DNA of 64,000 nt from Amoebophrya sp. A120. Taxonomy: Eukaryota; Protista; Dinoflagellata. This document shows, piece after piece, positions 18,501 through 46,063 of this stretch (the first letter of the stretch is position 1; every line of letters starts with the position of its first letter). Made by a program: the position numbers and the translations under genes. Below the pieces are notes generated by a model, which searched no databases, was not told the origin of the DNA, and was given only the letters and a program-made list of their open reading frames with translations. The stretch spans positions 2,440,228-2,504,227 of the forward strand of contig CAJINV010000004.1 in NCBI GenBank assembly GCA_905178155.1, in the 5' to 3' direction.

Positions 18501-21500
18501 GCCACGCGGAGTCACTCGCTGAACTGGGTCAAGTTTCTGGCCGGGTTCCCGGAACGCTTTGCGGAAATGCTGCTGAAGAACGAAGAGAAGACCGAACTGC
18601 TGTCGGACTACGTCTATCCTGTGCGAAAGTATCGTACTCCTACCTACTAATCGCAAATATGCATGACAAATCTCCATCCTAAGGTAAAACAGCATTATAA
18701 ATTCCACTTTTCCCCTTGCCAAAAGTTGTGATGCAATTTATACTGGTACGCTGCTTTTGCAATGCATAACGTCGTTTCCAGTCTTCTCGGCCCCAGCCAC
18801 ACCGCGGGGCTCGTCGAGGAGGAGGAGAGGTCGAAAGCCGTACACGACGGTGCGTTCGCGTCGGAGACGAGGCCGAAGCGGCGCAAGCAGCTGGATATGG
18901 ATTGCAAATATGTCTGGGTCTGGAAGGATGCGAACTTGTCATGCTAAATCTGAATCGTGTAAAAATCTGTGTTGCGTGATTAGCCAAAAGCTGTCCACTT
19001 TGGACCTAATCGAGAGGCAGTTGCTCATGCAGGATAGGCATGGCAGAACTCTCACAGAATCTGTCATGCTATGTTCTACATACCAGACCTCATGGGTCAT
19101 GGAAAACCGGCATGACAAATCTGGCATTCTGGAACTCTTCCAGACCGAGACACTTTTGCGGTTGATACTGGACGTAGCCCTGCAAAAGTGGGAGGAACGA
19201 CGCGAGGAGTCTTCCTCTCTAGCAACGGGTCGTGGTCCACCACCTCTACTGCAAATGAATACACGACAAGGCGGCCCCGAGATGACGAGCCCAAATCACG
19301 ACGATCGCACGAGGACACAGTGGCACCAGCTTTCCTTGGCTGAGCCTCCAGGTGGTGGACTCGAAGAGCCGGGCACTACCATGTTCGCAAACCGATCGAA
19401 AATCTACCACCCACTGTACGTGCTCGCGGTCCTGATCCGCGCCGAAAATGAATTCGGGATTTTCCCGTTCGCAACCAGAAAAGCCGTCGCCGTGCTGGAA
19501 GCGGCCTTTCAAAAAAAGAACGTCAAGATGAACCAGCGCAACAAAAGCATAATAGCGGAGGAGGACCACACGAAACGCCAAAGCGAGGTTGAAGACAACG
19601 ACCTATCGCGGGTGCTGGTCTTCCGACGAGAAAGTACAAGCGGGAAGCAGCCAGAGGAGCACGCAGAAGGAGCCACAAAGGCGGGGCAACCACATCTTCA
19701 ACAAGAACTTGCGGCGATTCTGGACTCGGAGCTGGATGATTATACAACTTCTTCACCAGATCATCATCATTTCTTGGCCGAACAGCCACACGAAGATGTT
19801 GTTGAGAGGCGTGAAAGAACGCCAAGCTCAGACCTACTTTCACATAACATCAATCCAACGTCTTCCAGTAGTACGCTGAACATCACGTACAGCACCGAGG
19901 CGACGCACGTGGACTTGGTGGCCAATGAGGACGCCTGGCTGAAGAAGGTCAACAAACAAATTCGCGACCCGCAGGTTTGTCAAGAAGCTCAAGTCGGGCG
20001 GTCGTCCGAAAAAGCACATCAAGCACAACATATTGCAAAAAGCCCAGAACAAAGAGATGAAGACGAGCTCATAGTACAGCAGCAAACCCGTTGCCTCCCC
20101 ACGCATTCGTACAGCGAAGTCCGGTTTGCACTGAACCGCATGCGGAAACTATCAAATGCACAAATGTCTGGGTCTGGAAGATTTCTAGATTTGTCATGCA
20201 TATTTTCCATGAGCCATGATGTCTGTGATGCACGCCGCAGCGTCACAAATTTTATAGAGGGCTTTGCGATACCTCTACCGCATGAGAAATGCCCTCTCTA
20301 TGTGGGACCAACCCGACTCCTCTTGCTGGTCATGCAATACAAATTTTTTTAGCATCCACAGACAGCAACACAAGCTGTGACCTTCCAGACCCAGACATAC
20401 TAGCCAGGGGGAAGGAATCTCTATCCCGAAGCGAAATCGAGAGCACTGGGAGGGGGGAAGCAGAACTAGAAGGAAAGGACGGGGGGGAAGGGTACGGGTG
20501 TGTCAGCTAGTCAGTTTCAGGTAGCCACTGGGGTCCTGGTTGTTTCGATGAGATTCGAGACGCGGCCGCTCTGCTCTTGGCCAAATTATATATTTGCGGA
20601 GCTCTTGCGGATAATTCTGGCTATGGAGCGGCATTTAACTTGGCAAGTCGCTGGCTGCCGATCTTATTTTTCCGCAGGTGTGGGCCGTTTTGTGGATCTT
20701 TGCTTGTGCGTTTATTTTGAGAACTATGCGCGTTTGAAGATCATGGCGCGCCTCATATTTTCCGCGGCGGGACTTTCTCGGAAGCTTGGCCGGAGCTTTT
20801 GCGTAGAAAGATCGGGAGGGCGTTCGCGCCGCCTCCTTCTCTATGTGCGAACAGATTCCGGCGGCCATTTTCTCCCGTGTTTTCTTGTGTCTGTTGCGGG
20901 GCCTGTTTCTCTATCTGCGAACAGTTTGAAAACCACGCAGAAGCGACGAGGCAAACGGCGGAACACAACGAGGCGGGGAGGCCAGACCTTCGGGACAAGG
21001 AAGATAGAGACGGGAAAGAGTGGAAAGACGAAAAAGGCGGGAAAAACTGAACAGACTGCGAGAACTGGGAGGGCTAGGGAAGCCTGTAAGAAAGACTGGG
21101 GCGGCTGAGGGGGCTGAGAAGCTCAAAAGGCGAATGAGGTTCGAAAGGTTGAGCAAACTGGAGAAGCCGGGAAGGCTGAAAACCTGGGAAGGCGGGGAAA
21201 CGAAAGCGAGCAAGCCTGGAAGCGAAGGCGCTGACTTGCTGAGAGGCCTCGGCGTCGCTTTTGCCTAGAGCTGGAGGGCGTTCGCGCCGCCTCCCTCTCT
21301 ATGTGCGAACAGATTCCGGAAGCTGTTCCGCGTTTCTCTTTGTTGCGGCGGCTGTTTTTCTGTCATAGAACTGCTAAGGCAACCGAGAGGCCAGCAGCTC
21401 CATGGAAAAGTCCGGCGGCCGCAGAGCCCAAAGGAGGCGCGGCGGGGCCCCGTTGCTGCAGCTTCGCAGCTTCAGCAGGCAGATTGGCTGGCGCGCCTGA

Positions 21501-24500
21501 AACAGCTGTGGCAGCTCGATAAGTAAGCGGAGCAGGCAGGAAAAGCCCGGGGTAGCTACAAAACCGGCTGTAGGTAGTTAAAGGACCGGCTTTAGTTAAC
21601 AAGGCGGGTGGAGCTAACGAGCCGGGTTTAGCTAACAAGCCGGCTTTGGGTAAAAAACCGGCTTTAGCTAAAAAATCGGCTTCAGCTAAAAAACCGGCTT
21701 CCGCTAAAAAAGAAACCGGCCGCGGCTAACAAACCGGCTTCAGCTACAAAGCCGGCTTGGGCTTTAGCTAGAAAACCGGTCTTAGCTAAAAGAGCCGGGA
21801 ACGAAGCTGGGAGGCCGACAGGCTGGGAGGTGGACAGGCTTGCTGGGAAGGTGGGGGGCTTGGGGGCTTGGAGGGCCAAAGGCTAAAAACGGAGAAGCGA
21901 AAACGAAAAAGCCAGGAGGCAGACAGGCTGGGAAGCGAGCAAGCTTGGAAGCGAAGGCGCTGACTTGCCGGGAGGCCTCGGCGTAGAATTTGCGTGCCTA
22001 GAGCGGGAGGGCGTTCGCGCCGCCTTTCTCTATGTGCGAACAGACTCGGGAAGCTGTTCCGCCTTTCTCTTTATTGCGGCGGCTGTTTTTCTGTCCTAGA
22101 ACTGCTAGGGCAACCGAGAGGCCAGCAGCTCCATGGAAAAGCCCAGCGGCCGCAGAGCCCAAAGGAGGCGCGGCGGGGCCCCCGTGCTGCAGCTTCAGCA
22201 GCTAGACTGGCTGGCGCGCCTGAAACAACTGCGGCAGCTCTACAAAACCGGTTTTAGCTAAAGGAACGGCTCGAGCTAACAAGCCGGGTCTAGCTAACAA
22301 GCCGGGTTTAGCTAACAAGCCGGCTTCAGCTAAAAAATCGGCTTCAGCTAAAAAACCGGCTTCCGCTAAAGAAGAAACCGGCGTGCTCAGCTAAACGACC
22401 GGCGTCAGCTACAGTGTCGGCGTCAGCTACAGCGAAAAGAACCGGGAAGCCGGGAAGCCGGGAAACCGGGAAACCGGGAAACCGGGAAACCGGGAAACCG
22501 GGAAACCCTGGAGTGGTTTCGGGTAAGGGTATCGCTGGAGTGGTTTCGGGTAAGGGTACGCGGGGAGTGATAAAGTGCTTCACGATTTCAGTACTTTCGG
22601 GCAATTTCTACCTTTCCCGGGTCTATATATATTTGTATTTGATAGAGCCTTTCGCAAACCGAATTGAATCCTGAGTACCGCGAGTTGTGGGGGTTCACCT
22701 ACATGGATTTGCAAAATGCGGTGAAGAAAGCCTTCCAGCGCTTGCAAACATTATTGGAGCTCGCGCACCGGCACTGGCGGCGGGAAAAGGTGAAGACGTA
22801 CTTCGAGCGGCTGTTTCAAGCGAGGTTTGACCATCTTGTTCATGATCGGGGAACTGCAGGATATTTATTTTCCACTAAGGACACTGATGTTCTTACCCCC
22901 TGGCGGCTGGTGAACGTCGAGAGTCTGGTAACCACTCCAGTGGAAGACGCTGTTACTGAGCAGATGCGCGGCTACCCGGGCGGCCTCCCCGCCGCGGAAG
23001 CCGAGCGGGCTGAGTGGCAGAACCCGCGGCGGAAGGTGAGAAGAGAACTTTGGGCGGAGAATCGAGAAAAACTGGAACGAAAGTTGCAAGAAAGTGTGGA
23101 GAGGGACGAGTTTTCTGTTTTACAGGTGGGGGGCAGAAGAAACAGAATAACAACTGAAAAGAAGGATGCAATAGACCACAAAAAGACCTCCACGAGCGAC
23201 GTGATGGCGGATCATTTGCACGAAAAAGACCCAACCGAAGATGAAGAAGGTGCGTTTCTTCAGGAGGACGCTCATCTTGACGGGCAGCAACTTGGCAATG
23301 ATCACGTGTCGGTGGAGGCGAACGCAGTCCCGAGTAGAAGTACTAGAACTCCGCTCTTGCTACTCTCCCCCGGAGCGCTGGCCCGCGTGAGGAGAACGTC
23401 CGAGGCCGCCGCTTCTCTGCACCAGAGCAGGCCAGAGCTACAAGAGGAACTCGAAGTAGCAGGAGCCCGTCGTCCAGAGCGACCTCCAGAAGGCACACCC
23501 CCACGACAATCGTCGACAAGAACTCTTCTGCAACTCCAGCCCGTGAGCGAACTGATCGCGAAGTCCAAAACTATTCGCACCGCGTCCCGCACGCACTTCG
23601 GGTCCATTTTCAACGTGCGCAAAAACCACCAGCTGTGGGCGCTGGAGAACCCCTACGACCTTTGGACGGACTTCGCCGACGAGGGCTACTTGGCGACCCC
23701 ACTTGCCGACTACGCGGAGGACCACAAGGACACCGTGCTGGAGCGGATTTTCGAGGTTATCGGCGTACACAACCACTTTTTCGTGGAAATCGGCACCGGC
23801 CTCGGCACGGAATGTAACAGCCGCTACTGGCGTATGGGGTTCTCAAATGTTACATTCTCAGCTGTTACATGAATTTGTAATGCAAGAATGGCAAGAGTGA
23901 GAGGGCAAATATATACGCCTTTTGCATTACAGGTTTGGCGCATATTCTAGTGCTATCTAGCGCGTCGAGAACTTGTCATGCGAAGCAGCTTTACGGTGTA
24001 GATACTGATGAGAGTTTTGCATGACAAACCATGTAACAGTTGAGAGCGTAACGCTTGAGAGTCCTATATGGCGCGTGATGCGCGGCTGGGACGTGCGGAT
24101 GTTCGATGCCACCGCGGATCTGCCGCACATTATGCATAGCAAATATGTCTGGGTCTGGAAAGTTGCAACTTGTAATGCTAAGTCTGGATCGTGCAAAAAT
24201 CTGTGTTGCATGAATGCCAAAAGCTCTCCACTACTTTTGACCAAGTTGAGAGGAAGTTTCTCATGCAGGATACACATGATGGGGATCTCACAGAATCTGT
24301 CATGCTAGGTCCTGCATTCCAGACGACATGGATCACGGAAAATCTGCAACACAAGCCTCGGAATCTTCCACACCCAGGCATGTTTGCTTTTGATACACAT
24401 TAACCTACGACAACAACTGATCAACCCGGACAACGTCAATGAGGTTTTCGCATCGCACGCTGTACCGCAAACCTTCGACGTGCTTTCGATCGATGTGGAC

Positions 24501-26719
24501 TCCTTTGACTGGCACCTGCTCCGCGCGGTGCTGTATCCTGTGCAAAAGTATCGTACTCGTAACAATTGCAGTCATGCATTACACATTTTTTTCCTAAGGT
24601 AAATCCGCATGACAAATTTTGTTTCTCATGCTGAGGGAATTTGTAATGCATTTGTATGAGTACGATACTTTTGCAATGCATATGCTGCTCCAGGGAAAGT
24701 TTCTTCCCCGCGTCATCATCGTCGAGCACACCGCCTCCATGCATCCCTTTGACGCCCGCTACTTTTCCCGGTACTTCAACGCCACCAAAACGGCGCGGTC
24801 GGACGGAAAGCGCGACGGCTTCGGCCGCGGACTCTACCAGTACTGGAGCCATTTTGGGTCGTCCATTCTGACTTTCCTCGACCTAGCGAACGCGTTCCGC
24901 TACGACCTGGTGTACTACTGCGACACAGATCTGGTCTTCGTACATCGAGACATATCCATCGAAAATTGTGTTGATTGTGGCGATGTGTTTGTTCTATTTC
25001 AGTATTGTGTTGCGGATCATGCAAGGCAGTTACTCCTACGATACTGAGTTTAAGGCGAGCCTGACTTAGTTTTTGTCACGAGTGAAGAAGACTTCGCTTT
25101 ACGAGTGGCGAAAAGAAATGTATCACACCAAAACGCAGTTTTGTCATCCTGGATAGAGTAGCCACTTCGGGACCGGGTTGGAGCTGCGGAAGGATCATTC
25201 CGCCGCGTTGCGGGGCGGGAAAAAACTCAGCAGATATGCAAGAAAAAAACTATGAATGTGAGTGTAAGTCTGTGATGCAGAAAGTGCAAAACTACTGTTA
25301 CACTCGTCATGCTGGATGTGCATCAGAGGCTCTTTTCGTACGTGTTTTCACGTGCTAGCTACGCATGACAGGTTTTCCGTGTCATGCAGAGCAAACTTGT
25401 GATGCTATTCCTCCAAGAAAATTACACTTACACAGTTTTTTCCTTGGATAGCAAAACAACTTCGAGTACTTCAACGAGGACCACGGGCAGTTCGTCCGCT
25501 GCTTCAGCGAATAAAGATTCCAGAAGTACAGGGGAAGATATTCCGGAGCAAAAAAATGATCGCGAGCAGCCACCGAGCACAGCGACCAGGACTTCTGCGA
25601 GCAGTGAAGTAGAGGGCGGTGTGTACGGCCTGGTCGTGGTGGACGAGAAAAATATTGATCACCGAGAAGAACCTCCTCGTTTGAACGGTATCACCGAGGT
25701 CTTTGGCGACCGGGACGATTCGACGGTGCTTTGGGAGCAGTATACGCCCGAAAAAGACACGGAACTCCGGCGAGGAGCCAGCTTGGTACAATGGCAGGAA
25801 GGGGAGGAAAGGAGAACGAGGACGACCATCGCTGACCTAGTTCTTCTTGCTGAAACCACGACTACTGCCCCACCACCGCCGCCCTCCCTCCCCGCCTCTG
25901 AACTGCCCAAGATCGGGTCGCTTTCGTACGTATGGATTGCAAATATGTCTGGGTCTGGAAGAATGCGAGATTTGTCATGCAGTTTTTCCATGACCCATGA
26001 GGTCTGGAATGCAGGACCTAGCATGACAGATTCTGTGCGATCGTTCTCATGCCTATTCTGCATGAGAAACTCCCTCCCGACTTGGTCAAAACTGGACGAC
26101 TTTTGGTAATCATGCAACACAGATTTTTGCATGCTTAAGATTTAGCATGACAAGTTGCATACTTCCAGACCCAGACACTTTTGCACTTGATATTACGACG
26201 TGCGCAACGCAGTCGCGGAGAACGACGGGCGGAGGCCGAGGTTCCTATCAACTGCAAAAATGTCTGGGTCTGGAAGAGTGCATGTTTGTCATGCTTTTCT
26301 GGCATGAGTCTTAAATCTGTCATGCACGTTACCCAAGAGCCCCACTCTTCTGTCATGCAAAAACGCAGTTTGTCATGCAGAATAGGCAACACCTAGAGGG
26401 CTTCAGAAACTTGTCATGCTGAGCCAGCACTTGTCGCTTCCTCATGATACGTCACCCAGCATCACAAGTTTCCAGACCCAAGCATTTTTGCATTTGATAG
26501 TTCCTCGGCATAAACAACCCGACGAAACTGTGCGAGCTGTACCAGCAGAGCGGGCGGTCGGTGGCGCGGCACCGGCTGTATCGGGGTAACGAAAATTACT
26601 GTTTTCCCAAAAGTATCTCGCCGCAGTGGAGTTTGGAGGAAATCCGGCTGAATTTTTGGCCAAGCCCAAAAACGACGTTTACCCCACAAGAGCTGCGGGA
26701 TGAGAATGTGAAAATTTGA
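15570..26719 (+). CDS. ~1641-aa secreted or membrane-anchored protein with a class I SAM-dependent (FkbM-like) methyltransferase domain
   Basis: 17 exons: 15570-16212, 16533-16597, 16846-17166, 17582-17638, 17793-17873, 18131-18187, 18462-18614, 18774-18895, 19173-20149, 22650-23832, 24074-24130, 24401-24533, 24688-24952, 25161-25234, 25456-25930, 26198-26245, 26505-26719 (4926 nt; 15 introners + GT-AG intron 17167-17581). N-terminal hydrophobic stretch; motifs FFVEIGTGLGTECNSR..GWDVRMFD..INL..INPDNVNEVF..VPQTFDVLSIDVDSFDW..FLPRVIIVEH..HFGSS. Confidence 0.8.
16213..16527. mobile_element. Introner-like element, family C (315 bp)
   Basis: TATTACAGTGAAAAATGCCCCCACCCCAGAA TIR; TSD GCAAT perfect. 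Confidence 0.9.
16598..16840. mobile_element. Introner-like element, unclassified/degenerate (243 bp)
   Basis: TATCG...CGATA ends; TSD CTACT/CAACC (3/5); removal restores the frame. Confidence 0.7.
17639..17787. mobile_element. Introner-like element, family B (149 bp)
   Basis: TATGAACTGG...GCACAGGATA; TSD ACCTT perfect. Confidence 0.9.
17874..18125. mobile_element. Introner-like element, family A (252 bp)
   Basis: TGCAAATATGTCTGGGTCTGGAA TIR; TSD AGCAC perfect. Confidence 0.92.
18188..18456. mobile_element. Introner-like element, family A (269 bp)
   Basis: TATCAACTGC...GCATTTGATA; TSD ATTCC perfect. Confidence 0.92.
18615..18768. mobile_element. Introner-like element, family B (154 bp)
   Basis: TATCCTGTGC...GCAATGCATA; TSD ACGTC perfect. 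Confidence 0.92.
18896..19167. mobile_element. Introner-like element, family A (272 bp)
   Basis: TATGGATTGC...GCGGTTGATA; TSD CTGGA perfect. Confidence 0.92.
20400..22629. mobile_element. ~2.2-kb non-coding repetitive insertion nested in an introner TIR
   Basis: Imperfect ~15-bp TIR TAGCCAGGGGGAAGG / CCTTTCCCGGGTCTA at a TA site. Internal ~730-bp duplication (from ~21205 and ~21933, partial third copy ~20815); GCTAACAAGCCGG and GGGAAACC mini-repeats. Confidence 0.7.
22441..22508. repeat. (CCGGGAAA/G)n octamer tandem repeat
   Basis: About 8 units, read directly. Confidence 0.9.
23833..24068. mobile_element. Introner-like element, family D (236 bp)
   Basis: TATGGGGTTCTCAA...TTGAGAGTCCTATA; TSD TGGCG perfect. 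Confidence 0.9.
24131..24395. mobile_element. Introner-like element, family A (265 bp)
   Basis: TSD CACAT perfect; family A TIR. Confidence 0.92.
24534..24682. mobile_element. Introner-like element, family B (149 bp)
   Basis: TGCAAAAGTATCGTACTC TIR; TSD TGCTG perfect. Confidence 0.92.
24953..25155. mobile_element. Introner-like element, degenerate (203 bp)
   Basis: TATCCA...TGGATA ends; TSD eroded (AGACA/GAGTA); removal with 5 flanking nt restores the frame (VHRDSHFGTG). Confidence 0.6.
25235..25450. mobile_element. Introner-like element, unclassified (216 bp)
   Basis: TATGCAAGAAAAAAACT / AGTTTTTTCCTTGGATA TIR; TSD GCAGA/GCAAA. Confidence 0.8.
25931..26192. mobile_element. Introner-like element, family A (262 bp)
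   Basis: TSD GTACG/TTACG; family A TIR. Confidence 0.9.
26246..26499. mobile_element. Introner-like element, family A (254 bp)
   Basis: TSD GTTCC perfect; family A TIR. Confidence 0.92.
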
Positions 26720-32033: not shown

Positions 32034-35000
32034 ATGGCGGGCTTTTTCTACTCTCCCTTGAGCGCGAAGGTCTTTTCCCTTCTTGTCGCCGTCCATGTAA
32101 GTAATCCTGAGCAGACCATGTTCTTCGCCCTCGCGCAGGACCCGGCACTGCAACTTTCCTTCGCGTGCCCCTATACCAGCGTGAGTTGTTGCGGCACCCT
32201 GGCCGGCGCGGCGCAAATTGCCGCGCAGCACGTGAACAACCGGAACGGGAGCTTGGTGTCCGAGTTGGCGTCGCTCCAAAATGCGACCATTTCCGTGTCG
32301 GCCCAGGATCGGGACTACTACACGTCGGCCTACGAACTGGTGAAGGCGAGCCAGGAGGTGGTGACCACCGGCAGCTTGAAGAAAGCGGACGCCTACTTGG
32401 CGTTTTACTACTCCTCCGACGTGATTTCCGCGCACGAGTACTTCGTGGAAAAGAACTTGGACACTCCCTTGATCGGGTGGGGCGCAGCCAGTCCGGTGTT
32501 CAACGAGTACCCGACCTACTACCAAAACTTTTACAGTTTTGGAAGCGTCAGGACCGAAATCGACAAAGTCGACAAATTTGTGATGCGTAAAATGTAGGGC
32601 ACTGGAGGCCTGTATTGGGGAGCAGGCAAGCGAGACCGATTGTGAGCCTGTTTAGGGGTATGCAATGTGCTGCCAGAGTAGCATGACAGGAGCAGTCTTC
32701 TTTGCCCAAACAGCATGACAGACTGGATTTGATTGCTCCCGAAATTTGTCATGCGCCACTTCCAAACTGAGGCTCCAACTGGAATCCATTTTATGCATGA
32801 CAAATCATTTTGATTTTGTCAATTGCGATTCTGACACTTCCATAACAGTCTGTACCCGAACGACGCGATGCTGGCGACGCAGATGGCCCGGCTCTTCTTC
32901 CACCAGTTCGGGTTCAAGTTCGTGGCGGTCATCAGCGAGCCGGACGCCTGGAGCGACGGCTTCGCGAAGGTGTTTGCGGCGGAGTTCGTAAAGCTTGTTA
33001 ACGCCGGCGCCGCTTCGGCCGGCGGAGGTAGTAGCAGCAGTAGCAGTACAATATCGCCGTCAGTTCGGTACAAACTTTCTGCCGACTCGCCGATTACGGC
33101 GACGGAGTGCCAGACTACTTTGCAGCAGATCCGTAAGGCGACCGCGAGGGTCGTGCTGTACGTGTCAGGCTACGCGGCGCACCTGCAGACCATGCTGTTG
33201 GAGGCGCGGCGGCTGACGATGGCGGGGCCGCAGGCCAAGGAGTACGTGTGGGCGGCGCTGAACTTGGGGACGCCGGGCACCGTGTACAGGGGTGCGGAGT
33301 ACCACAACATGTTGACCCTCAGCCCGCGCATGCAGGACGCCGCGGCCGAGAGTAAGATGCAGCAGCTCCGGGCCGAAATGTGGACGGCGGAGATGGCGGC
33401 GGGGCCGCTGCCCACCGGCGCCATCCACGGCTATGCACTGCAAATATGTGGTCTGGGTGTGGAAAAGGACCAAGTTTGTCATGCATATTTTCCATGACCC
33501 ATGAAGTCTGTCTCTGTGATGCATGCCCGAGCATCACACATTCTGCGAGAGCTTTCTGATGCTCATACCGCATGAGAAGTGCCCCCTTCGCGTGGCAAAA
33601 ACTGGACCTCTTCTGCTGTTCATGCAATAGAGGTTTATTTATGTAGAGTCCAAAGTTAGCCTCTTTTTCGACGCGTTCGGACTGAGGATTGTTCCGCATC
33701 GCAGGTATTATAATATTTAGATTTCGCGTACAGCCACCCTATTTACCTGCTGATGGGCCGCACCCGGAAGCATCCAGTTTGTTTACATCAGCGCTTAAGT
33801 GGGTGCTGTGGTGGTTTTCAGCGGGCCGCACCCAAGGACTCCATCCACTCGCCCCGCGCAAGACAATAGACGTTTTTGGCTGCAGACACGATAACAGTCC
33901 ACCTAAGTTAAGGGGCCGCACCCCGTTTTTTTAAGCTCGGCCCGTTCCTTGCACACAGTGTGCAGCACCAGGCGGGACCATAGATGAGCAGATATTTCTG
34001 GCGACATTCTTGTGGACATATTGAAGCATCATGATGACAAATAGTTCTTATTTTACAGCTACCGCTTCGTTTTGCAACTCCAGCAATCGAGGTTGTGCTG
34101 ACCTGTTTTGTACAAAGATATGAAAAAGTCTGACATTCCAAAAAAAAGAAGTAGATTCATCCTCTCGTCGCCACCAACATAAGTACCTTGAGGTGCCGCA
34201 CACCTCTATCTCTAGTCTCTTGTTGAAAACTTCTTGCTCGTTCGGTCGCGCATGTGCGGTGCAGCCCGCTCAGAGTTTTTTGTTTTTCATGCGACTCTGC
34301 AGCACTCACGCATGAATCTTTGCGTGTTCCAAGTCCTAGGACTTTCATGGGCTCACGCACATCCGAGATCGGGGGGGTAGGAGGGGGTCTCCAAGCCAAA
34401 AAAAAACTAAGCAGCATCACCTCAGGGTTCCAGGGTTCCAAAGTTAGCATCACAAGTTCCAACCTTCCAGACCCAGACACTTTATTTACATTTGATAACG
34501 GCTTGACCGCGACCACCGGATCCGGACCGTCGAAACTGCCCGTGGTGGATATGGCCGCGTTCTCAAGCGTTACATTCTCAACTGTGACATGATTTCCCAT
34601 GCAAAATTACCTTCAGAAACAGAATCGAAACCATCAAGCTGCTTCGCATGACAACTTCTCAGAGGCCTAAGCAGGCTGCTAATCTGTGCCAAACCCAAAT
34701 CTGTCATGCAAGACGCGCAAGGTCCCCTGTTTCACTTTTGCCATCGTTGCACTACAAATTGATGTAACATTTGAGAGTGCAACGTTTGAGAGCGCCATAG
34801 TGGAACGCCAACAGCTGTTGGTTGGTTGCGAGGAGTTTCTTCTATGCATTGCAAATATTGTGTCATCTGGGTATAGAAAACGAAAATTGCAAGCTTGTAA
34901 ACATGCATGTTCTATCTTGTGCAACAGCATGGCGAAGGAACATGGCTTCTTTGTCATGCGGAGCCGCAACCTCTCATGCGGAGTTCTAGGCAAGAACGCA

Positions 35001-38000
35001 TACCAGCGATAAAATTTAAATTTGTATTTGGCGTGCGTACCTGCTGTGTACCTTCGTCTGCTTGTTTTTACAGTGTGTCAAATGATACTAGCTCTAGCAC
35101 GACAAGTTTATTCCAGACCCCGACATCATATTTGCCATGCATATTATCCTTACGTGTACGACGGCGTGGCGGCGGCGGCGCTGGGCTACGAAGCGCAGTT
35201 ATTGAACCACACGACGAGTACCTACGCGGTCGGGGTCGCGGCCGGGGTCAATTTCCACGGGTTGTCGGGCCCGGTCGCGCAGCAGAGCCCGTCCGGCATT
35301 CGCAACTGGGGCCTCCGCCCGGCGCGGCGGTACAACCTGCTGCAGATTCAGAACGACGGGGTCTTAACCCAGCTGACCAACTTCACGTATGACAATGCAC
35401 AACTCCCCCTCCCCCTCATTTGTCATGGAAAATACCAAATCCAGCCCTTTCCCTGAAGCACTGCTTGCGTGACAGATTCCGCAAGCTGAAACAGCACTAG
35501 AATCGGTCCCGAATTTTTTGTCATGCAAAAGCTGCATTTATGCCAGCACTTGTGTTGCTGTTTATGAGCTTCAAATGAGGGGGAGGGGGGGTTGTGCACT
35601 CTCATATCACGGACGCGGCGTCCATGAGCGCCGACACGTGGAACACGAAAATCCAGTGGGCGACGAGCTCGGGCACCACCCCGAAGGGGCACCAGCAGGG
35701 GTATCCGAAGCAAAAACGTCCACACCCCATAGTCAAGTTGGTAAATCTACAATACAAATCTCCACGCTTTCGCAGTTGTGCATGACAAGTTTCCATCTAC
35801 AGTGTAGTGGTGGCTAGCAAGGGAAGCTGCATGAAGATGCCATTTTCTCATCCTGTTTACAGTATTACAAATGGCAAAACACGATTGGAAATGCCTCTCA
35901 TGGAGTTGCGTATTAATACAAATGTTCCTGTTATTGCACATTTGCATGACAACTCTGGGCGGGTGGGGACGTTTTTACGCAGGATAAGGGGGCCTGTTTC
36001 ATCAAGCAGATCCAGTGCAACGAGGGGTACTGCGTGAACGAGGGCGCGGGCGTGGGGTTTAAAGGCGGATGGTGCGAATGCAACCCGGGGTACGCGGGAC
36101 CCACCTGCGACGTGAAGTCCTCCGTGCCCCTGACCCGCGGCGCGGGGGGCGGCCCCGAGGGCCGCGTGGCCTACGCGGACGTGTTCTGGAAGAGGCTGGG
36201 GCCCTTCGACGAGGTTTCGTTCTCAGCGGAGCTGATCGTCACGCAAATCTACCTGGACGAGCGCATATGAACTGCAAAAGTATCGTACTCGTTGTATAAA
36301 TGCATTACAAATTTCCTCAGCATAAGAAATTAAATTTGTCATGCTGATATACCTTAAGAAAAATATTTGTAATGCAAGACTTGCAGCTGCATTTATGCGT
36401 ACTTTTGCACAGGATAGCGCACCCGCATCAACGACGGGCACTACCCGGGCACGGAGGTGGAAACGCTGCTGGGGAGCACCGCGGGCCCAAACCTCTTCCT
36501 GCCCTTGGTGAAAACCGCCGTGACCACCTGCAAGGGCGGCGTGGCGAAGCAATTCACGACGGGCACCCGGGCCGAGGTGAAGTACCCGCTGATATACGCC
36601 CGGACTGTGTATCTGTTATGCAATGCAAAAGTTTCGTACTAGTATGAATTGCATGACAAATTTTTCGTAGAACAAAAATTAAATTTGTCATGCAGATTCA
36701 GGTCAGAAAGCAGATCTGTCATCTTGCTAGACTCGCATTTGTACGAGTACGATACTTTTGCAATGCATATCTGTTCGAGCGGTGCCAAACCGACCCCAGC
36801 TGGGACTACTACCCCTTCGACAAGCAGAAGCTGTTCGTGGACATCACACCGGTCTACGACGCGAAACTGAGCTGGCTCTTCGACTTCGAGGAGTTCTGGA
36901 CCCAGATCTCTACCAATCAGCACGTGCTGAAAATCGAAACCTCCTCCGGATCCACGACCGCCTTACTCGTGACCAACTCCACTACGGCCACCACCAGCAC
37001 CACCGTGGCCGGCACGACTTCGAAGGCAGCAGCAGCAGGCGGCGATGACGTGAACAAGTTTCTGGACCACAATATCAAAAGGAAAAATCCCCCCTCCCCA
37101 TATCGAAATGGAAATATGTGATGCAAGATTTGCGTACACAAATCGGATTTGTCTTGCAGTAAGGCATCGCAGACAGATCCTCGGCCTAGGTAGGGGCGTA
37201 TGGGTCTAGTTGCTTACTTAGCAATGCAAACGGGTGTCCCCTAGGCGCAACAGCATGCCAAATCGCTTCCATAATGGTGCGGAAGCCTCTGCGCTTGTCT
37301 TCTTGCAAGACAGACGTGATTTGTGACCTCAAATCAGCAACACAGATTTTCGGAAACATACCTTTTCGATATGGGGAGGGGGGATTTTTCCTCAGAATAC
37401 ACAAGCAGGTCATGTTGAACGCGCTCGCCCGGGACAGGCCGGGCGTTTTCGAGTATATGACAGTGCACAACTCCCCCTCCCCCTCATTTGTATGGCATGA
37501 ACAGCAATACAAACATTAGCGCACATGGAGCCTATGCATGACAAATCTATCAACTTAATGTAGTACCGTTTAAGCTTCCAGAATTTGTCATGCAAACAGT
37601 GCTACAAGGCAGCAGCTGGATTTGGGATTTTGCATGACAAATGAGGAGGAGGGGGAGTTACTTATGCACTTTCATAGAGTACCCCGGGGTGCCAGAAACC
37701 GTGGACGGCACCATATCAAATGTAAAAATGTCTGGGTCTGGAAGAATGCAACTTGTGATGCTGCGTTTGGATTCCAAAAAAATCTGTATTGCATGAGTAC
37801 CAAAGGGAATGCAATTTTTGCTACGCTGAGAAGGCATTTGTCATGCGGAATAGGCATCAAGAAGCGTTCAAAAAATCTGTATTGCGAGGGTATGGATCAC
37901 AGACATCATGGCTCATGCAAAACGTGCATGACAAGTGTCAGAATCTTCCAGACCCAGACACTTTTACAGTTGATACACCACGGTCGCGGACGACTGGAAC

Positions 38001-40098
38001 CCCTCGTGGCCCTGCCAGGGCGCGACCCTGCAGTACGACGTGACAACGTCGCGCGCGGCGCTGACGCTGGAAGTGGAGCGCGACGCCAACCTGTGGCGCG
38101 TGCGGATCGCCATCCCGGCGATCTTGCTCGGCACCTTCGCCTTCTCCACCTTTATCGTGCCGCCGGACAAGCTGGTGCCGAGGTTCATGATATCAAGTGC
38201 AAATGTGTCATGGTCTGGAAGGTTGGAACTTGTGATGCTAACTTCGGACTCGAAAAAAATCTGTATTGCATGATCAGCAACAGGAGTCTAGATTGTGCAA
38301 CGCGGGGAGGGCATTCGTCATGCGGCAGAGGCATCAGGAAGCCCTCTAAAAATCTGTGATGCTAGGTCCTGCATTACAAACGAAACATCCTGGGTCATGC
38401 AAAATACGCATGACAAACCCGGCAACATTCCAGACCCAGAAACTTTTGCATTTGATACATGAGCGGGTACCTGGCCTTCCTCGCGCTGCAGAGCTTCCGC
38501 ACGTCCGCCACCAACCAGGCGCCGGACAGTCTGATCAGTCTGGGCTACCTGGACGTGCTGCTGCTGTACCTGACGCTCTCCATGTCGGGGTGTGTCATTG
38601 CGGTCATGGCGGGCGAAATCGTCTTCCAAAAACTCGGGCCCACCGTGGTCCGGGAATGCGACGCACTGTCGAAGAGGTATCTATAATACTTAACAGAGTT
38701 ATATTTTCTTGGATTCATGTTCATCGATGATGTAAAATGTTTTTCTTCACATCAAAAACGCCGAATCAATCCTGCTGTGCCGGTATCAAAAATACAGAAC
38801 CGTGCCGACGTGTTACTTTCTCACGCTGCTGATCGCGATGGTGGGCGCGGGAGAGGACAACCCGTTAGACATGACGGTCGATTCCTTTTTCGCCATCGCC
38901 ATGACCTCCGCCATCCTGCCCGGCCTGTTCTACGTGACCTGGCTCACCATCCTGGTCCGGAACTGCGACCACTTTTACCTCTACAACTGCATCAAGGTGG
39001 CCCAGGACGACCCCGCGGCCCCCTGTGTGTTGAAGGATCTGGAGTTGCAGGCCATGTTCCGCTGGATCAGTATCGAGTACCAGAAGCAGCACCCCCACCA
39101 GGCCGTCCTGGCTGCCGATCAAGTATCACATGCAAAAATGTCTGGGTCTGGAAGAATGCAGCTTGTGATGCTGCATTTGAATGTCTAAAAGATTTGTGTT
39201 GCATGAGCAGCGAAAGGAATCCAATTTTTGCTACGCGGAGAGGGCATTTGTGATGCGGAATAGGCCTCAAAAGACCTGGGATGCTAGGGCATGCATCACA
39301 GACATCATGGCTAATGCAAAACGTGCATGACAAGTCTCAGAATCTTCCAGACCCAGACACTTTTGCATTTGATATCAAGAGGAAAGTGACGACCACGAGA
39401 TTCCGGTGGACGTCGTGGCGAAGTACCTGCTTGACGCGATCAAGGGGGATCTGGACCTAGAGCGGTGCATTTTCTTCACCAAAATTCTGTACGACGAGTG
39501 CGACAGCAGCGGGGACGGGAAAATCGACGTGACGGAATGGAAGCAGCACTTTCCCAAGGTGATCCAGGCGGTCGCCCGGGGCAAGTCCGCCTTACTCGTG
39601 CGTTCCCGGCTCTACTTGTTCCATTTCTACGTGCAGCGGATGTTTAACTCGAAGTTTCAGCCGAAGCAGCTCGTGTTGCCCCACCCCACGCTGCATGCTG
39701 ACAACAGCAATAATTTGATCAATAATTTATTGAACCTAGGTGGTGGGCAGGCCGCGCAGAGCAGTTCCTCCCCCGTGTCGGCCTCCTCGCAAAACAAACC
39801 CTTTCCCCCAGCAGCCGCGGACGTGGACCACGCAGACTTCAGCAAGGAAACCACGGAGCAAATGGAGCCCGTCGGCCACCGGAAGTCTGCGAGCCTCTTT
39901 GCGCAGAAGTACAAAGACCACGAAGACCCCCTGGCACTGGCCCGCGACCAGCTGCGCCGCCGGAACAGCGCACGCTTGTCTGCTACTTCATCCGGAGGTG
40001 ACAAGGGCAAGCGCGCCGGGGAAGGCAGTGCGATGGTGGTGAATGTTGCGGACGTGCAGTATGAGGAGAAGTTTGTTTCTGATGATGAGGACGCGTAG
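32034..40098 (+). CDS. ~1272-aa receptor-channel: signal peptide, ANF/Venus-flytrap domain, EGF-like domain, Cys-less (Pro-loop) pentameric ligand-gated ion channel ECD + M1-M4, fifth TM, EF-hand
   Basis: 15 exons: 32034-32537, 32850-33431, 34503-34549, 34805-34842, 35149-35387, 35612-35701, 35992-36265, 36422-36616, 36775-37072, 37405-37455, 37682-37713, 37981-38190, 38463-38676, 38798-39123, 39380-40098 (3819 nt; 13 introners + GT-AG intron 38677-38797). Motifs: NFYSLYPNDAMLA..FGFKFVAVI, PYVYDGVAAAALG, VNFHGLSGPV; WCECNPGYAGPTC; YLDER, YYPFDKQKL, LEVERDANLWRVRIAIPAILLGTFAFSTFIVPPDKLVPR, LGYLDVLL, CDALSKRTVP; DSSGDGKIDVTE. Confidence 0.85.
32538..32844. mobile_element. Introner-like element, family E (307 bp)
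   Basis: TTTGGAAGCGTCAG...CTGACACTTCCATA; TSD ACAGT perfect. Confidence 0.9.
33432..34497. mobile_element. Introner-like element, family A, with nested 776-bp insertion
   Basis: TATGCACTGC...ACATTTGATA; TSD ACGGC perfect. Confidence 0.88.
33661..34436. mobile_element. 776-bp non-coding insertion with a 12-bp direct repeat
   Basis: TCCAAAGTTAGC at 33649-33660 and 34437-34448; no TIR seen; three GGGCCGCACCC motifs inside. Confidence 0.7.
34550..34799. mobile_element. Introner-like element, family D (250 bp)
   Basis: TATGGCCGCGTTCTCAA...TTGAGAGCGCCATA; TSD GTGGA perfect. Confidence 0.9.
34843..35143. mobile_element. Introner-like element, family A, degenerate (301 bp)
   Basis: TATGCATTGCAAATA / TATTTGCCATGCATA; TSD TCTTC/TTATC. 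Confidence 0.8.
35388..35606. mobile_element. Introner-like element, family F (219 bp)
   Basis: TATGACAATGCACAACTCCCCCTCCCCCTCATTTG TIR; TSD TCACG perfect. Confidence 0.92.
35702..35986. mobile_element. Introner-like element, family G (285 bp)
   Basis: TATCCGAAGCAAAAACGTCC TIR; TSD AGGGG perfect. Confidence 0.9.
36266..36416. mobile_element. Introner-like element, family B (151 bp)
   Basis: TSD GCGCA perfect; family B TIR. Confidence 0.92.
36617..36769. mobile_element. Introner-like element, family B (153 bp)
   Basis: TSD TCTGT perfect; family B TIR. Confidence 0.92.
37073..37399. mobile_element. Introner-like element, family H (327 bp)
   Basis: GGAAAAATCCCCCTCCCCATATCGAAA TIR; TSD CACAA perfect. 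Confidence 0.92.
37456..37676. mobile_element. Introner-like element, family F (221 bp)
   Basis: TSD GAGTA perfect; family F TIR. Confidence 0.92.
37714..37975. mobile_element. Introner-like element, family A (262 bp)
   Basis: TSD CACCA perfect; family A TIR. Confidence 0.92.
38191..38457. mobile_element. Introner-like element, family A (267 bp)
   Basis: TSD CATGA perfect; family A TIR. Confidence 0.92.
39124..39374. mobile_element. Introner-like element, family A (251 bp)
   Basis: TSD TCAAG perfect; family A TIR. Confidence 0.92.
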
Positions 40099-42214: not shown

Positions 42215-45200
42215 ATGCTTTCCAGCCTCACCGGCGGGTCTTCCTCCGCGGCCGCGGCGCAGCGGGAAAATGCGGCCCAGTCAAAGGAAAACGAGAACTA
42301 CGGGGACACCTCCACCTTCTATCCATTGCAAATATGTAGTCTGGGTCGTCTGGACGACAATTGCAACTTGTGATGCAAATTTCAAACAGCACAAAGATCT
42401 GTGATGCACAAACAGCAAGAAATGTTGCGGCCCAAAACTTCGCAACAAAAAAGGGGATCTCGATTTGTTCTGCGGATTAGGCATTGGGATTGGAACATGC
42501 ACATCTCAAAACGTGTGATCATGCTAGGGCTTGCATTCCAGACCTGCTCTAGGGCATCAGCATGCACAACTAGCAGGAAGATGGCAAACGTCTGCACTGA
42601 ACATCCAGACCCATGTATCGATATTTGCAATGTCGATACCACCTCCCCCGAGTCGATTCAAAAATCTTCCGAGTACCGCCAGGCCGGGGACAGCGTGGTG
42701 CTTCGGTATGTGCAGAACCTGCAGGAGTTCTACGAGCTTTTTGAGGAGGTGATGCCGTCGGGGACGCGCGGATCCCACGTGAAGGCGGTCATCTACGCAA
42801 GGCGCAAGTCGGACCACAAAAAGGTGATCATCAAACTGAGGAACAAGAACAGCAGCTTATTACAGTGAAAAATGCCACCACCCCGGAATTTGCAGATGAA
42901 GTTTGTCATGCAAAGTTTCCAAATGAAAGCTTTTTGTGTTGCATAAATTAAAAGGATTGCGAGCGTTTCTGGTGCAGAATCAGGGTGCGCAAGGTACCTT
43001 GTGCATAACAGATCCGGCTGCTGTTGGGCTACTTCGCAACACAAATTTGACCTATTCAGCATGGAAAATTTGTGATGCTGAGATATGCAAGACGGGGAAT
43101 GTTTCTGTTGGAAAAGTTTGCAATACAAAGGCTGCCAAGCTGGGGGTGGGGGCATTTTTCATTGCAATACAGCTTCAAGGACTTGAACGAGATGCGGGAG
43201 TGGATTCTGTCCATGAAGTACCTCTACCTCCTTATCCTACGCAAAAACGTTCCCGCCACCCCATAGCCAGGATGGGAAATCTGCTAGACAAATCTACCAG
43301 CTTTTATTGCTGCGCATGACAAGTTTCCTCGCCTCGTATTTGTAATCCTGTCTAGCTAGCCCTAGCTCCAGCAGCACTACAGACCTAGCTCACCATGCCG
43401 ATTCGAGCATCACAAATTATTCCAAAACGCAATGACTAGAAGTAGAAAATGCTTGATGTTCTCATGGGGCTCCGCATGAGAAACATGTTTACCGTGCACA
43501 TTTGCATGACAGCTATGGGGAGGTGGGGACGCTTTTACATAGGACACTCCTCTCCGGGGGCACGAAGCAGGAAGAAAGAGAAACCCAGTACGCGAAGGGG
43601 CAACTGCAGCAGATCGCCAACATGGTAGACATACTCGAGGACGCCAACAACTACTACGCCTGCATGGAACACGTGGAGGGGCGTATCCTGAGTAAAAACG
43701 TTCCCACACCAGAGTCAGGATGGGGATTTTGCAACACAAACCTAGGAGGTTTGTGAGTCACGCATGACAAGTTGCGCTCTGCAGTGTAGTGCAGGTTAGC
43801 AAGTGCAGCCGCATCACAGATTCATCTGCTCATCCTGTTCACAGCATCACAAATTTCAAAACACGACTGAAAATGGCTCTCATGGGGATGCGCATTACAA
43901 GTCTTCCTGTCTTTGCAAATCTGCATTACAACTCTGGCGTGGGTACGTTTTTACTCAGGATAGGGCGCGACCTATTCGACTTTTTTCTGCAGGAGAAAAT
44001 CTACGCCCGGTCCTACCGGCTGCATATCCACTGCAAATATGTCTGGGTCTGGAAACTTGTAATGCAAGTCAGTGAATACTAAGCACTCTGTAATGCACCG
44101 CCAAGCATGACAGGTTTTTTCGTCGCGTTGTGTTGCGTACTCTCCGCATGAGAAACCGCGTTTCTGCATAACAGGCAGAGGGAACTGCTCGTGGCCACGC
44201 AGCACAGAGTCCAGAGTCATGCCAGACAAGCATGACAAATCTCGCAGTCTTCCTGACCCAGACATATTTGCAATGCATACTGCAGTTCGTGCAGCAATTG
44301 TGCAAGTCGCTACTGATTGCGCTCGATGAATTCCTATGAAATGCAAAAGCATCGTGCTAGTATAAATTGCAATACAAATCGGCTCAGCATTACAAATTGA
44401 ATTTGTAATGCGGATTTGCCTTAGGAACTGGATTTGTAATGCATAAGTGCAACTAGTACGAGTGCGATACTTTTGCAGAGGATAAATCCAGCAGAAGGGC
44501 CTGGTGCATAAGGACCTAAAACTCGAGAACATCGTCTTCGATGAAACCAAGCAGCGGCAGACCGGGGAATCCCTCGTCTGCGTTCCCAAATTCATAGACT
44601 TCGACACCGTATTTATTAAGGGTTTTTCTTTTTGTTTCTATGTATTGCACTACCATCAAACAAGAGCAGCTATTAGTGCCAGCAGAGTTTTTATGGGGCA
44701 GCTTTTATGATCTTTACGATTTATGTGTAGAAGAAGTGGACAGCCTCAGCCCGTCGCCACTCCGGAGTCGTTCCAAAGATCGGTGGTTGCGGGCTCTCTG
44801 TTCTTGAAATTGTTTTTCATCCAAAGAACATAAGCTTGATACGACCTACTTAATACTGCGCGGCCGCAGGAGGAGACCGTGATCTGGTAGTTTCTTAGGT
44901 AAAAATTCAGCATGATGACAAGAAATTGAAACTCTACCTGTCAGTGTCACGCTAAGGAAAGTATAAATGCAAGTGATGCAGCTACATCCAACACCACAGA
45001 TCGAGATCTGGGTCCCGGGGCGGAAGCAGTTTCACGTGCTGGGCACCGATCAGTACATCGCCCCGGAAACATACGCCGGCTACCCCTGCCCCGCATCGGA
45101 TATGTGGGCCATGGGGGTAATCTGTTACACGATGCTCACGGGCTGTTTTCCATTTCACCAGGGCCTGTTTAACGACCGACCCGGCGAGAACTTCGTAGAC

Positions 45201-46063
45201 CATGTGGCAATGCAGCAAATCCGCAGGAGGATGCGAATCGCTCGAATAGACTGGTATAAAATAACAGTTGCACTTTAGGGAAATAAATGTATGAGTCCCG
45301 TGCTTTTCTTGCTAAAAGGGAGAAGACAAGAGCTACCACAACTCGAAAATTATGAAGTGACCTTCTAGTTGTACAACGGCATGATTTTGATTCAATTTCA
45401 CGTACTACAAGCAATATCTGCACATGATCGCGCAAGAGGACTCTTGATGTACTACTACTGGCAGCAAGCAGCGTGATCTGCTCAAAAATCTCTGTACAAC
45501 TACAACTTCTAAACTGCATTCTCAGGTCAAACCGGGCCTGGGTGTTGGATTCGCGGGCACGGGACTTCGTTCGGCGGTGTTTCATTTGCGATGCGACGCG
45601 ACGACTCTCCTTAGAGGAAGCGCAAAACCATCTATCACAGGAAAAAAATATCGATCTGGGGTTCTTGGAATGAAATTAAATGAATCCATTTCGTGATGTT
45701 GATGAGTGGCGAAAAATCCTGGCGAGGACCGCGCCACAATTTTTTATACGCCTACGGCTCAGGATTTTTTCACCGCAACAAGTTTACTCTGAGTAGTTGC
45801 TTGGTGTTGATGTGTATCTTTATTGTATTCTGCATGTTGAAGTTGAGATGAAGCTGCGTTTCTGCTGCAATTGCATGACAGAAAATTAGGCCCTTTTGCG
45901 TAACAAGACCTCCGTGCATGACAGAGTTCAAAAGAATCGTTGTAGCCCGAGCACAACACACGCCTTCTTGTGTTTATTTTCCAGACCGCAGATCGATGTT
46001 TGCATTGGATACCCTCCGTGGATTCGAGACGATCCGATACCGCAGATCGATAACTCCTCATAA
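42215..46063 (+). CDS. ~380-aa Ser/Thr protein kinase, CAMK-like, with DFD in place of DFG
   Basis: Exons 42215-42319, 42644-42857, 43175-43232, 43552-43683, 43968-44024, 44285-44334, 44490-44608, 45000-45253, 45526-45632, 46017-46063 (1143 nt; 7 introners + 2 GT-AG introns). Motifs VIIK, MEHVEGRDLFD, HKDLKLEN, IDFDT, GTDQYIAPE, SDMWAMGVI, RRLSLEEAQNHPWI. Confidence 0.88.
42320..42638. mobile_element. Introner-like element, family A, degenerate (319 bp)
   Basis: TATCCATTGCAAATA / TATTTGCAATGTCGATA; TSD CCTTC/CCACC. Confidence 0.8.
42858..43169. mobile_element. Introner-like element, family C (312 bp)
   Basis: TSD CAGCT perfect; interior is the reverse-orientation homologue of 16213-16527. 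Confidence 0.92.
43233..43546. mobile_element. Introner-like element, family G (314 bp)
   Basis: TATCCTACGCAAAAACGTTCCC TIR; TSD CTCCT perfect. Confidence 0.9.
43684..43962. mobile_element. Introner-like element, family G (279 bp)
   Basis: TATCCTGAGTAAAAACGT perfect 18-bp TIR; TSD GGGCG perfect. Confidence 0.93.
44025..44279. mobile_element. Introner-like element, family A (255 bp)
   Basis: TSD CTGCA perfect; family A TIR. Confidence 0.92.
44335..44484. mobile_element. Introner-like element, family B (150 bp)
   Basis: TSD ATTCC/AATCC; family B TIR. Confidence 0.9.
45633..46011. mobile_element. Introner-like element, family A-like, degenerate (379 bp)
   Basis: TATC...GATA ends; TSD CCATC/CCCTC; removal restores the kinase NHPWI motif. 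Confidence 0.8.

Follow-up and report, generated by a model that had tools for sequence, protein, structure and literature searches.

The gene and its introners

The window analysed here, a 64,000-nucleotide (nt) stretch of contig CAJINV010000004.1 of the marine parasite Amoebophrya sp. A120, carries on its plus strand a gene with its start codon at 32034 and its stop codon at 40096-40098. Removal of 13 introners, which are transposon-like introns, and one GT-AG intron leaves a single frame of 1272 residues with zero internal stops, and this frame is identical at every residue to a public protein, CAD7944785.1 (GSA120T00000225001), which is labelled 'unnamed protein product' and belongs to a cluster of one. 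Judged from its sequence, the protein joins five parts: a Venus-flytrap domain, an EGF motif, an ion channel of the pentameric ligand-gated type (pLGIC) lacking the Cys-loop disulfide, a predicted fifth membrane helix and a predicted cytosolic EF-hand. The pLGIC identity is a new annotation for CAD7944785.1. The channel part is a distant relative of the nicotinic and GABA channels of nerve cells. The features of the gene, all on the plus strand, are listed below (ECD, extracellular domain; PBP-I, type I periplasmic-binding protein; KD, Kyte-Doolittle hydropathy; M1 to M4, the channel's membrane helices, with primed numbers for positions along M2).

32034..40098, plus strand: whole gene, 15 exons and 14 introns, 1272-residue product
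32034..32135, plus strand: likely signal peptide, from hydropathy only (hydrophobic window at residues 2-20, KD 1.48)
32139..35387, plus strand: Venus-flytrap (PBP-I) domain of ANF_receptor type, residues ~36-470, exons 1-5
35995..36114, plus strand: EGF-like motif with six Cys (502, 509, 514, 528, 530, 539)
36154..38081, plus strand: pLGIC ECD, residues ~555-817, ending at the pre-M1 Arg817
36810..36827, plus strand: Pro-loop tip YPFDKQ, residues 669-674, no Cys-loop disulfide
38091..38159, plus strand: M1 with Pro829, from alignment and profile
38181..38512, plus strand: M2, with R851 at 0', split by introner 12, P874 (23') lying after it
38546..38620, plus strand: M3, from the profile
38654..38846, plus strand: M4, residues ~918-941, interrupted by the canonical intron; end point of the bacterial profile
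38677..38797, plus strand: canonical GT-AG intron inside M4, 121 nt, no terminal repeat
38886..38957, plus strand: predicted fifth membrane helix, residues 955-978, 24 uncharged residues, mean KD 1.90
39380..39567, plus strand: EF-hand pair, with a degenerate loop at residues ~1035-1046 and a canonical loop at residues 1075-1086 (39502-39537)
39667..40098, plus strand: low-complexity C-terminal tail and stop, residues ~1130-1272, read from the sequence

A sequence-only reading of the locus had described this architecture as hidden, which is right for the raw DNA and for the pLGIC identity but not for the gene model, which is public. Its count of 13 introners was correct, the ends being fixed by terminal and direct repeats and the resulting splice being that of CAD7944785.1, but it passed over the canonical intron within M4.

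The coding stretches are separated by A+T-richer inserts bearing terminal inverted repeats, and each introner was taken to run from TAT to ATA and to include a single copy of a 5-nt direct repeat. The open frame depends closely on these borders: retaining any single intron produces an early stop (14/14), and a random shift of all boundaries within +/-10 nt preserved the frame in 5 of 20,000 trials. The inserts occupy the following positions, with no strand assigned.

32538..32849: introner 1, 75% to the copy at 62039-62346
33432..34502: introner 2, 1071 nt, 11/12/14 family in reverse orientation
34550..34804: introner 3, preceded by a 47-nt exon
34843..35148: introner 4, preceded by a 38-nt exon, imperfect direct repeat
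35388..35611: introner 5, 85% to 63454-63672
35702..35991: introner 6, 75% to 43684-43965
36266..36421: introner 7, terminal and direct repeats
36617..36774: introner 8, terminal and direct repeats
37073..37404: introner 9, terminal and direct repeats
37456..37681: introner 10, terminal and direct repeats
37714..37980: introner 11, terminal and direct repeats
38191..38462: introner 12, inside M2, terminal and direct repeats
39124..39379: introner 13 (the 14th intron), terminal and direct repeats

Twelve of the 13 begin with TAT (intron 1 begins TTT), all 13 end in ATA followed by the 5-nt repeat, and a perfect 5-nt direct repeat flanks every one except intron 4, where three of five positions match. 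Their gapped terminal inverted repeats give 22-32 matches per 35 nt, and for 12 of the 13 the window contains a related copy at another position. These inserts thus show the TAT inverted repeat, border direct repeat and repeated family that characterise introners of Amoebophrya A120. They resemble those reported by Farhat et al. (PMC7789003) in having TAT inverted repeats, short direct repeats, a length of ~250 nt and repeated families, and by comparison with that account they are of no new kind, although 13 in one gene is dense. At intron 4 the two direct repeats (34838-34842 and 35144-35148) differ at two of five positions; the public protein retains the left one, and the cut therefore falls at, or at most one base from, the start of the inverted repeat. 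Treating 33438-35141 as a single intron was ruled out, the repeat-defined reading with two micro-exons being the one that yields the public protein.

Gene models of A120 were derived from aligned transcripts since ab initio tools had failed, the longest open reading frame (ORF) being chosen from a transcript-alignment graph (PMC7789003). Because the models were built in this way, the exon junctions of CAD7944785.1 probably have transcript support. Sequencing run X7 yielded four partial reads and none across a joint, and three runs guessed to be RNA contained 0.47-0.48 of the words, near the 0.43 expected for exons only, which is not evidence.

Several other features of the gene and its surroundings were observed. 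The arms of introner 2 (33432-34502) enclose ~770 nt of unrelated DNA, which may be a nested insertion. Introners are concentrated in the insertion-rich parts of the protein, and four micro-exons of 47, 38, 51 and 32 nt (34503-34549, 34805-34842, 37405-37455 and 37682-37713) each lie between neighbouring introners. The whole coding sequence has a GC content at third codon positions (GC3) of 0.85, whereas five other long ORFs of the window have 0.64-0.69; this codon-bias outlier may reflect high expression or foreign origin. Neighbouring genes (17874-26504, 42858-44284 and 59669-63677) hold at least 17 further TAT...ATA introners, and at 44967-45275 on the plus strand lies an exon that by eye resembles subdomains VIII-IX of a Ser/Thr protein kinase.

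Pentameric channel core and flytrap

The identity of the channel part was established with a profile of bacterial pLGICs gathered by a Pro-loop DNA pattern. The pattern returned 120 loci, of which 40 with short flanks were dropped; in 79 of the remaining 80 the motif was in frame, and 42 survived filters for length and hydropathy. Since a profile of these 42 together with the Amoebophrya protein retrieves GLIC at E 3e-43, the set consists of genuine pLGICs. The test profile was limited to columns downstream of the selection motif, such that the motif used for collecting played no part in the score. It matched the Amoebophrya protein at 31.6 bits over residues 801-940 (beta10 to M4), covering profile positions 52-190 of 194 with one gap of a single residue, and none of 600 shuffles reached that score (maxima 2.0 for 300 global and 11.6 for 300 local shuffles).

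The membrane domain accordingly has four helices in pLGIC register, with a basic residue at 0' and Leu at 9'. The sequence-only reading had named a pre-M1 Arg, an M1 Pro, M2, M3 and M4, and all were recovered: R817, with P829 twelve residues after it in M1, and the M2 residues R851, L860 and P874. Among 43 bacterial rows, the same residues occur in 43 (R817), 38 (P829), 37 (R0'), 37 (P23') and 26 (L9'). One alignment that placed the bacterial M3 onto M4 is contradicted by the profile match, by other alignments and by the M3 Asp (37/43).

In the ECD, which contains Ser/Thr-rich and other long insertions, a strict count puts T662 and L676 at the two positions of the Cys-loop cysteines, as had been claimed. 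The strict C-x13-C arrangement is absent: C660 lies two residues before T662, and there is no second Cys. The [F/Y]PxD motif at the tip of the beta6-beta7 loop is present (Y669, P670, F671, D672). This motif is defined among seven conserved pLGIC positions in Table 1 of Jaiteh et al. (PMC4795631), six of which are found here at the right spacing; the seventh, the beta9 aromatic, is ambiguous, being F752 in one alignment and W789 in another. The ordered motif set arose in 4 of 20,000 shuffles, for a pattern composed after seeing the sequence. An ESM Atlas search with residues 545-985 gave a best score of 0.91 (191/256 features) to eukaryotic Neur_chan clusters, on a scale calibrated for whole proteins only; a search with the whole protein returned bacterial Peripla_BP_6 clusters (670-760 residues) at 0.78, within the range of chance.

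The N-terminal domain belongs to the ANF_receptor family, as the sequence-only reading had proposed. Pfam ANF_receptor (PF01094) matches residues 58-325 at 43.4 bits (E 3e-11, cut-off 25.4), and of the eight families listed for CAD7944785.1 it is the sole one above its Pfam cut-off. The same region scores 43 bits on ANF versus 14 on Peripla_BP_6. In a model whose folding alignment included six bacterial flytrap rows, residues 36-414 have the two-lobe fold and match a taste receptor, mGluR, GABA-B, LivK-type proteins and kainate-receptor N-terminal domains at Z 12-13.6 and a root-mean-square deviation (rmsd) of 7-9. A comparison of flytrap exon 2 with sequences in the PDB gave spurious matches to E2 enzymes. 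S127 stands at the Ser of the amino-acid site and Ala152 at the position of the Thr; their counterparts in an amino-acid-binding flytrap are S165 and T188 of mGluR1.

The EGF motif likewise bears out the earlier claim at the level of its pattern, the six Cys having EGF spacing and fitting the PROSITE EGF patterns, with a Pfam EGF score below threshold (17.1 bits, cut-off 21.5, E 0.007). Near the other end of the protein, the loop at residues 1075-1086, which had been called a canonical EF-hand, fits the PROSITE EF-hand pattern (1075-1087), as do 51 of 20,000 shuffles; with its degenerate neighbour, this 12-residue loop makes a helix-loop-helix pair at motif level. The last exon searched against solved structures gave weak matches, the best to the EF pair of CDPK3 (E 0.0015), and most of the 36 rows were EF-hand proteins. 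The proposed Pfam check of the spliced protein therefore succeeded for ANF_receptor but not for EGF or EF-hand, both below cut-off, nor for Neur_chan, which had no match at E<=10.

Flytraps of this type are best known from other receptors. The Amoebophrya protein is not a class C G-protein-coupled receptor (GPCR): it has five membrane segments, four of them in pLGIC register, and no 7tm_3 match at E<=10. Nor is it an ionotropic glutamate receptor (iGluR), the PBP-II/pore-loop Pfam families being absent at E<=10 and the membrane part matching pLGIC.

Proposed working and rival explanations

We favour, at a probability of roughly 0.55, the view that a single protein combines flytrap, EGF motif, Cys-less pLGIC, fifth helix and EF-hand, and that it likely serves as a surface chemosensor with cytosolic Ca2+ feedback. 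A small solute bound by the flytrap would favour an open pore, and by analogy its closure may be transmitted to the channel ECD through an EGF linker stiffened by disulfides. Class C GPCRs carry a cysteine-rich domain at the site corresponding to this linker. Subunits would presumably assemble as a pentamer, as in other members of the family, and cytosolic calcium may feed back on the channel through the EF-hand. Gating by small molecules via the flytrap, together with modulation by Ca2+, thus seems a reasonable supposition; that this protein senses hosts is conjecture. A bolder proposal, which we regard as tentative and on the whole doubtful, is that a eukaryote independently reinvented the flytrap-gated pentameric channel, with a sensor of class C GPCR type, an EGF linker and a fifth helix leading to a cytosolic EF-hand, and that this five-pass Pro-loop receptor with calcium feedback lets the free-swimming parasite detect dissolved cues, e.g., host exudates.

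A number of results weigh against the view that we favour. Pfam Neur_chan is absent at E<=10, and a bacterial profile of the strands before the Pro-loop finds no match in the protein; the full alignment nonetheless positions these strands plausibly, strand by strand, agreeing with the Atlas match on a possible ten-stranded beta-sandwich ECD, and Pfam at E<=0.001 also overlooked 10 of 20 scanned members of the bacterial set (Neur_chan found 10/20), these being a non-random sample of the 12 longest and 8 short loci. A sequence search of the PDB gave pLGIC matches only at E 0.24-6.7. An AlphaFold2 model built with the bacterial pLGIC alignment has a mean predicted local distance difference test score (pLDDT) of 59, with 85-95 for M1-M4 and values below 50-55 for the EGF region, for residues ~400-555 and for a large part of the EF region. 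Structure searches, covering model residues 2-380 and 519-911, matched it to GluCl, GABA-A, GLIC and DeCLIC at Z 16.5-16.9 and rmsd 3.4-4.1 over ~280 residues (Foldseek E 2e-9). The fold match that had been asked for was thus obtained, but because the folding alignment consisted of bacterial pLGICs the argument runs in a circle as far as the channel part is concerned, and it indicates compatibility only. A fold from the single sequence was set aside (pLDDT 34.5). Because Ala152 replaces the Thr of amino-acid-binding flytraps, an amino-acid ligand is not indicated by the flytrap residues.

The pore contributes to the same side. With R851 at 0', the register gives Met 2', Leu 6', Leu 9', Ser 13' and Thr 16'. 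Position 2' is G, N, S or A in 37 of 43 bacterial rows versus Met here, Leu occurs at 6' in one of the 43, and -2' is acidic (E/D) in 31 of them versus Val here, -1' not being acidic either; M2 thus has neither a cation nor an anion selectivity signature. Searches for relatives also fall on this side. They detect close relatives only, such that their null results do not imply uniqueness. A word-index search with one exon gave one match among 14 candidates, CAD7944785.1 itself; a protein search with residues 40-1110 found only self among 7984 scored; residues 545-1110 matched none of 7998 shorter proteins; and genome contigs (0/33 candidates), plasmids and NCBIfam held none. The one locus returned from metagenome contigs (L001) was, on reading, a CoA-ligase-like ORF matched falsely. 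These close-relative searches consequently lend no support from conservation to the linkers, helix 5 or the EF-hand.

The rival explanations partly overlap, and not all are mutually exclusive. The flytrap could be a modulatory, assembly or adhesion module, comparable to the N-terminal domain of iGluRs or DeCLIC, with gating left to the pLGIC ECD, pH or ions. We consider this unlikely but a serious contender. The extra N-terminal domain of DeCLIC modulates and does not gate (PMC12664993), PBP domains fused to a channel serve, in the proposal of Tasneem et al. (PMC549065), to gather ligand for the site that the channel itself carries, and the Thr of amino-acid sites is missing from the flytrap; however, the ECD has long insertions and its ligand loops are not assignable, and the EGF motif occupies the place that would be expected, by analogy, of a force-passing linker. 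Slightly less probable is that the protein, while retaining a pLGIC fold, is as a homomer a poor channel or none, needing other subunits or signalling through its EF-hand and tail. Three hydrophobic rings, of Met 2', Leu 6' and Leu 9', would be stacked without a charge signature at -1' or -2', and the usual pLGIC plan is without a cytosolic C-terminal domain; the uncommon hydrophobicity of the lower pore keeps in play a channel that conducts weakly or is heteromeric. Against this, the gating-interface residues examined (Pro-loop, R817, P829, P874, L9' and R0') are all retained despite a fast-evolving genome (PMC7789003). Within the 64-kb window there is no partner pLGIC subunit.

Helix 955-978 might instead be re-entrant or packed on the surface, which would leave the EF-hand outside the cell or in a lumen, sensing external Ca2+; this strikes us as improbable. 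The fifth membrane pass is predicted only from hydropathy, from the bias in charge and from a model of medium confidence (helical at pLDDT ~63-75, with zero alignment rows behind it), the helix contains a central Pro-Gly, and one of 43 bacterial rows continues more than 15 residues beyond M4. Yet its mean KD of 1.90 over 24 uncharged residues compares with 1.50 for M1 and 1.57 for M3, whereas 19-residue windows of the soluble domains reach at most 1.07. The loop between M4 and helix 5 is acidic (0 K/R, 4 D/E), with K/R residues following the helix and four K/R in the M3-M4 loop, and all five N-glycosylation sequons lie upstream of M1. The extra helix sits where the sequence-only reading had placed it, and with an odd number of passes the C-terminus would therefore be inside. 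Last, the whole architecture might be an artefact of fused neighbouring gene models, which we judge highly improbable. No single transcript was observed here, and the public model takes the longest ORF from its graph (PMC7789003); but because an introner, flanked by a direct repeat of its own, forms every interdomain junction, excision restores a frame that was continuous before insertion. Domain borders lie within exons, the EGF motif sharing one with the first two ECD strands and the end of M4 sharing one with helix 5; GC3 is uniform at 0.84-0.90 across the five folded regions; and the sole non-introner intron lies within M4, where the pLGIC profile crosses it without a gap.

Known flytrap receptors and pentameric channels

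Pentameric channels are described as an ECD with four helices, extra N-terminal domains having been reported for prokaryotic members (PMC12664993). If the favoured reading is true, this plan is widened at both ends by a eukaryotic subunit that carries flytrap, EGF motif, fifth helix and EF-hand, and the subunit offers a concrete construct for asking if a pentameric pore can be gated by a flytrap fused to it. It would equally serve the question of what protist Pro-loop receptors do, since Jaiteh et al. set terminal regions aside and did not settle domain architectures or function (PMC4795631). The case also suggests that Pfam-level annotation of dinoflagellate-group proteomes overlooks such channels. 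The protein is a candidate chemosensor of a parasite that attacks bloom-forming dinoflagellates, for which chemosensing has been named as an unstudied question (PMC9723556); the link to the host is conjectural.

Literature searched by title and the start of the abstract, with few subscription papers covered, contained neither the five-part layout nor an account of this gene, and a eukaryotic flytrap-pLGIC layout is absent from the available parts of PMC11085791, PMC12664993 and 10.1101/116715. Class C GPCRs, iGluR N-terminal domains and natriuretic-peptide receptors share with the Amoebophrya protein a flytrap of ANF type and, between it and the membrane part, a Cys-rich linker, but their effector is a seven-helix bundle, a PBP-II/pore-loop channel or a cyclase, respectively, and here it is a pLGIC. 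Cys-less pLGICs occur in protists, including alveolates (PMC4795631). Like the protist and invertebrate receptors described there, the Amoebophrya channel has interface residues at the expected spacing and no disulfide, and its nearest Atlas clusters are eukaryotic pLGICs, which we treat as a lead only; to that plan it adds flytrap, EGF motif, fifth helix and EF-hand. DeCLIC (PDB 6v4a; Z 16.5 over the channel part), the only characterised prokaryotic pLGIC with an extra N-terminal domain according to PMC12664993, also carries a large addition before the channel, but the lobes of that addition are similar to other regulatory domains of prokaryotes, and its Ca2+ sites lie in the periplasm. Its modulation by Ca2+ is known, that of the Amoebophrya protein being suggested only by a predicted, cytosolic EF-hand.

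The closest parallel comes from bacteria, where Tasneem et al. (2004) reported PBP-I domains fused to pLGICs (ART-LGIC; PMC549065), and where six of the 20 scanned loci have a flytrap joined to a pLGIC, in keeping with what the sequence-only reading had said of periplasmic-binding domains. Among the bacterial loci, a Chloroflexota protein of 1304 residues (L029:493-4404, minus strand) combines Peripla_BP_6, pLGIC and a C-terminal SBP_bac_1, such that binding proteins flank the channel; two planctomycete pLGICs (L058:1226-3163, plus; L078:989-2899, minus) are fused to NMT1_3, a type II binding protein, a class described as pLGIC neighbours by Tasneem et al. (PMC549065); and three further bacterial pLGICs (L039:1211-3091, plus; L061:938-3133, plus; L062:1906-3780, minus) have 290-400 extra N-terminal residues with no Pfam match at E<=0.001.

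The bacterial fusions and the Amoebophrya protein are alike in placing a type I flytrap N-terminal to a Cys-less pLGIC. In all six, however, the flytrap reaches 24-144 bits on Peripla_BP_6 and has a lower score on ANF, the reverse of what is found here, and the Amoebophrya flytrap scores 3.8 bits on a six-row profile of theirs. They have no EGF motif, whereas here one stands between flytrap and ECD, so that the bacterial layout, a Peripla_BP_6 flytrap joined directly to the ECD, is not that of this protein. Past the Pro-loop, five of these proteins extend for no more than ~225 residues and the sixth adds SBP_bac_1; the Amoebophrya protein continues for 603. Because its flytrap is of ANF type, the fusion is likely independent of the bacterial ones, a weakly tested point (a six-row profile, no tree) that counts among the weaknesses of the favoured reading. 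The pairing of flytrap and pLGIC is thus already known from bacteria, and what appears to be new, on the sequence comparisons made here, is its ANF-type, eukaryotic, five-part version.

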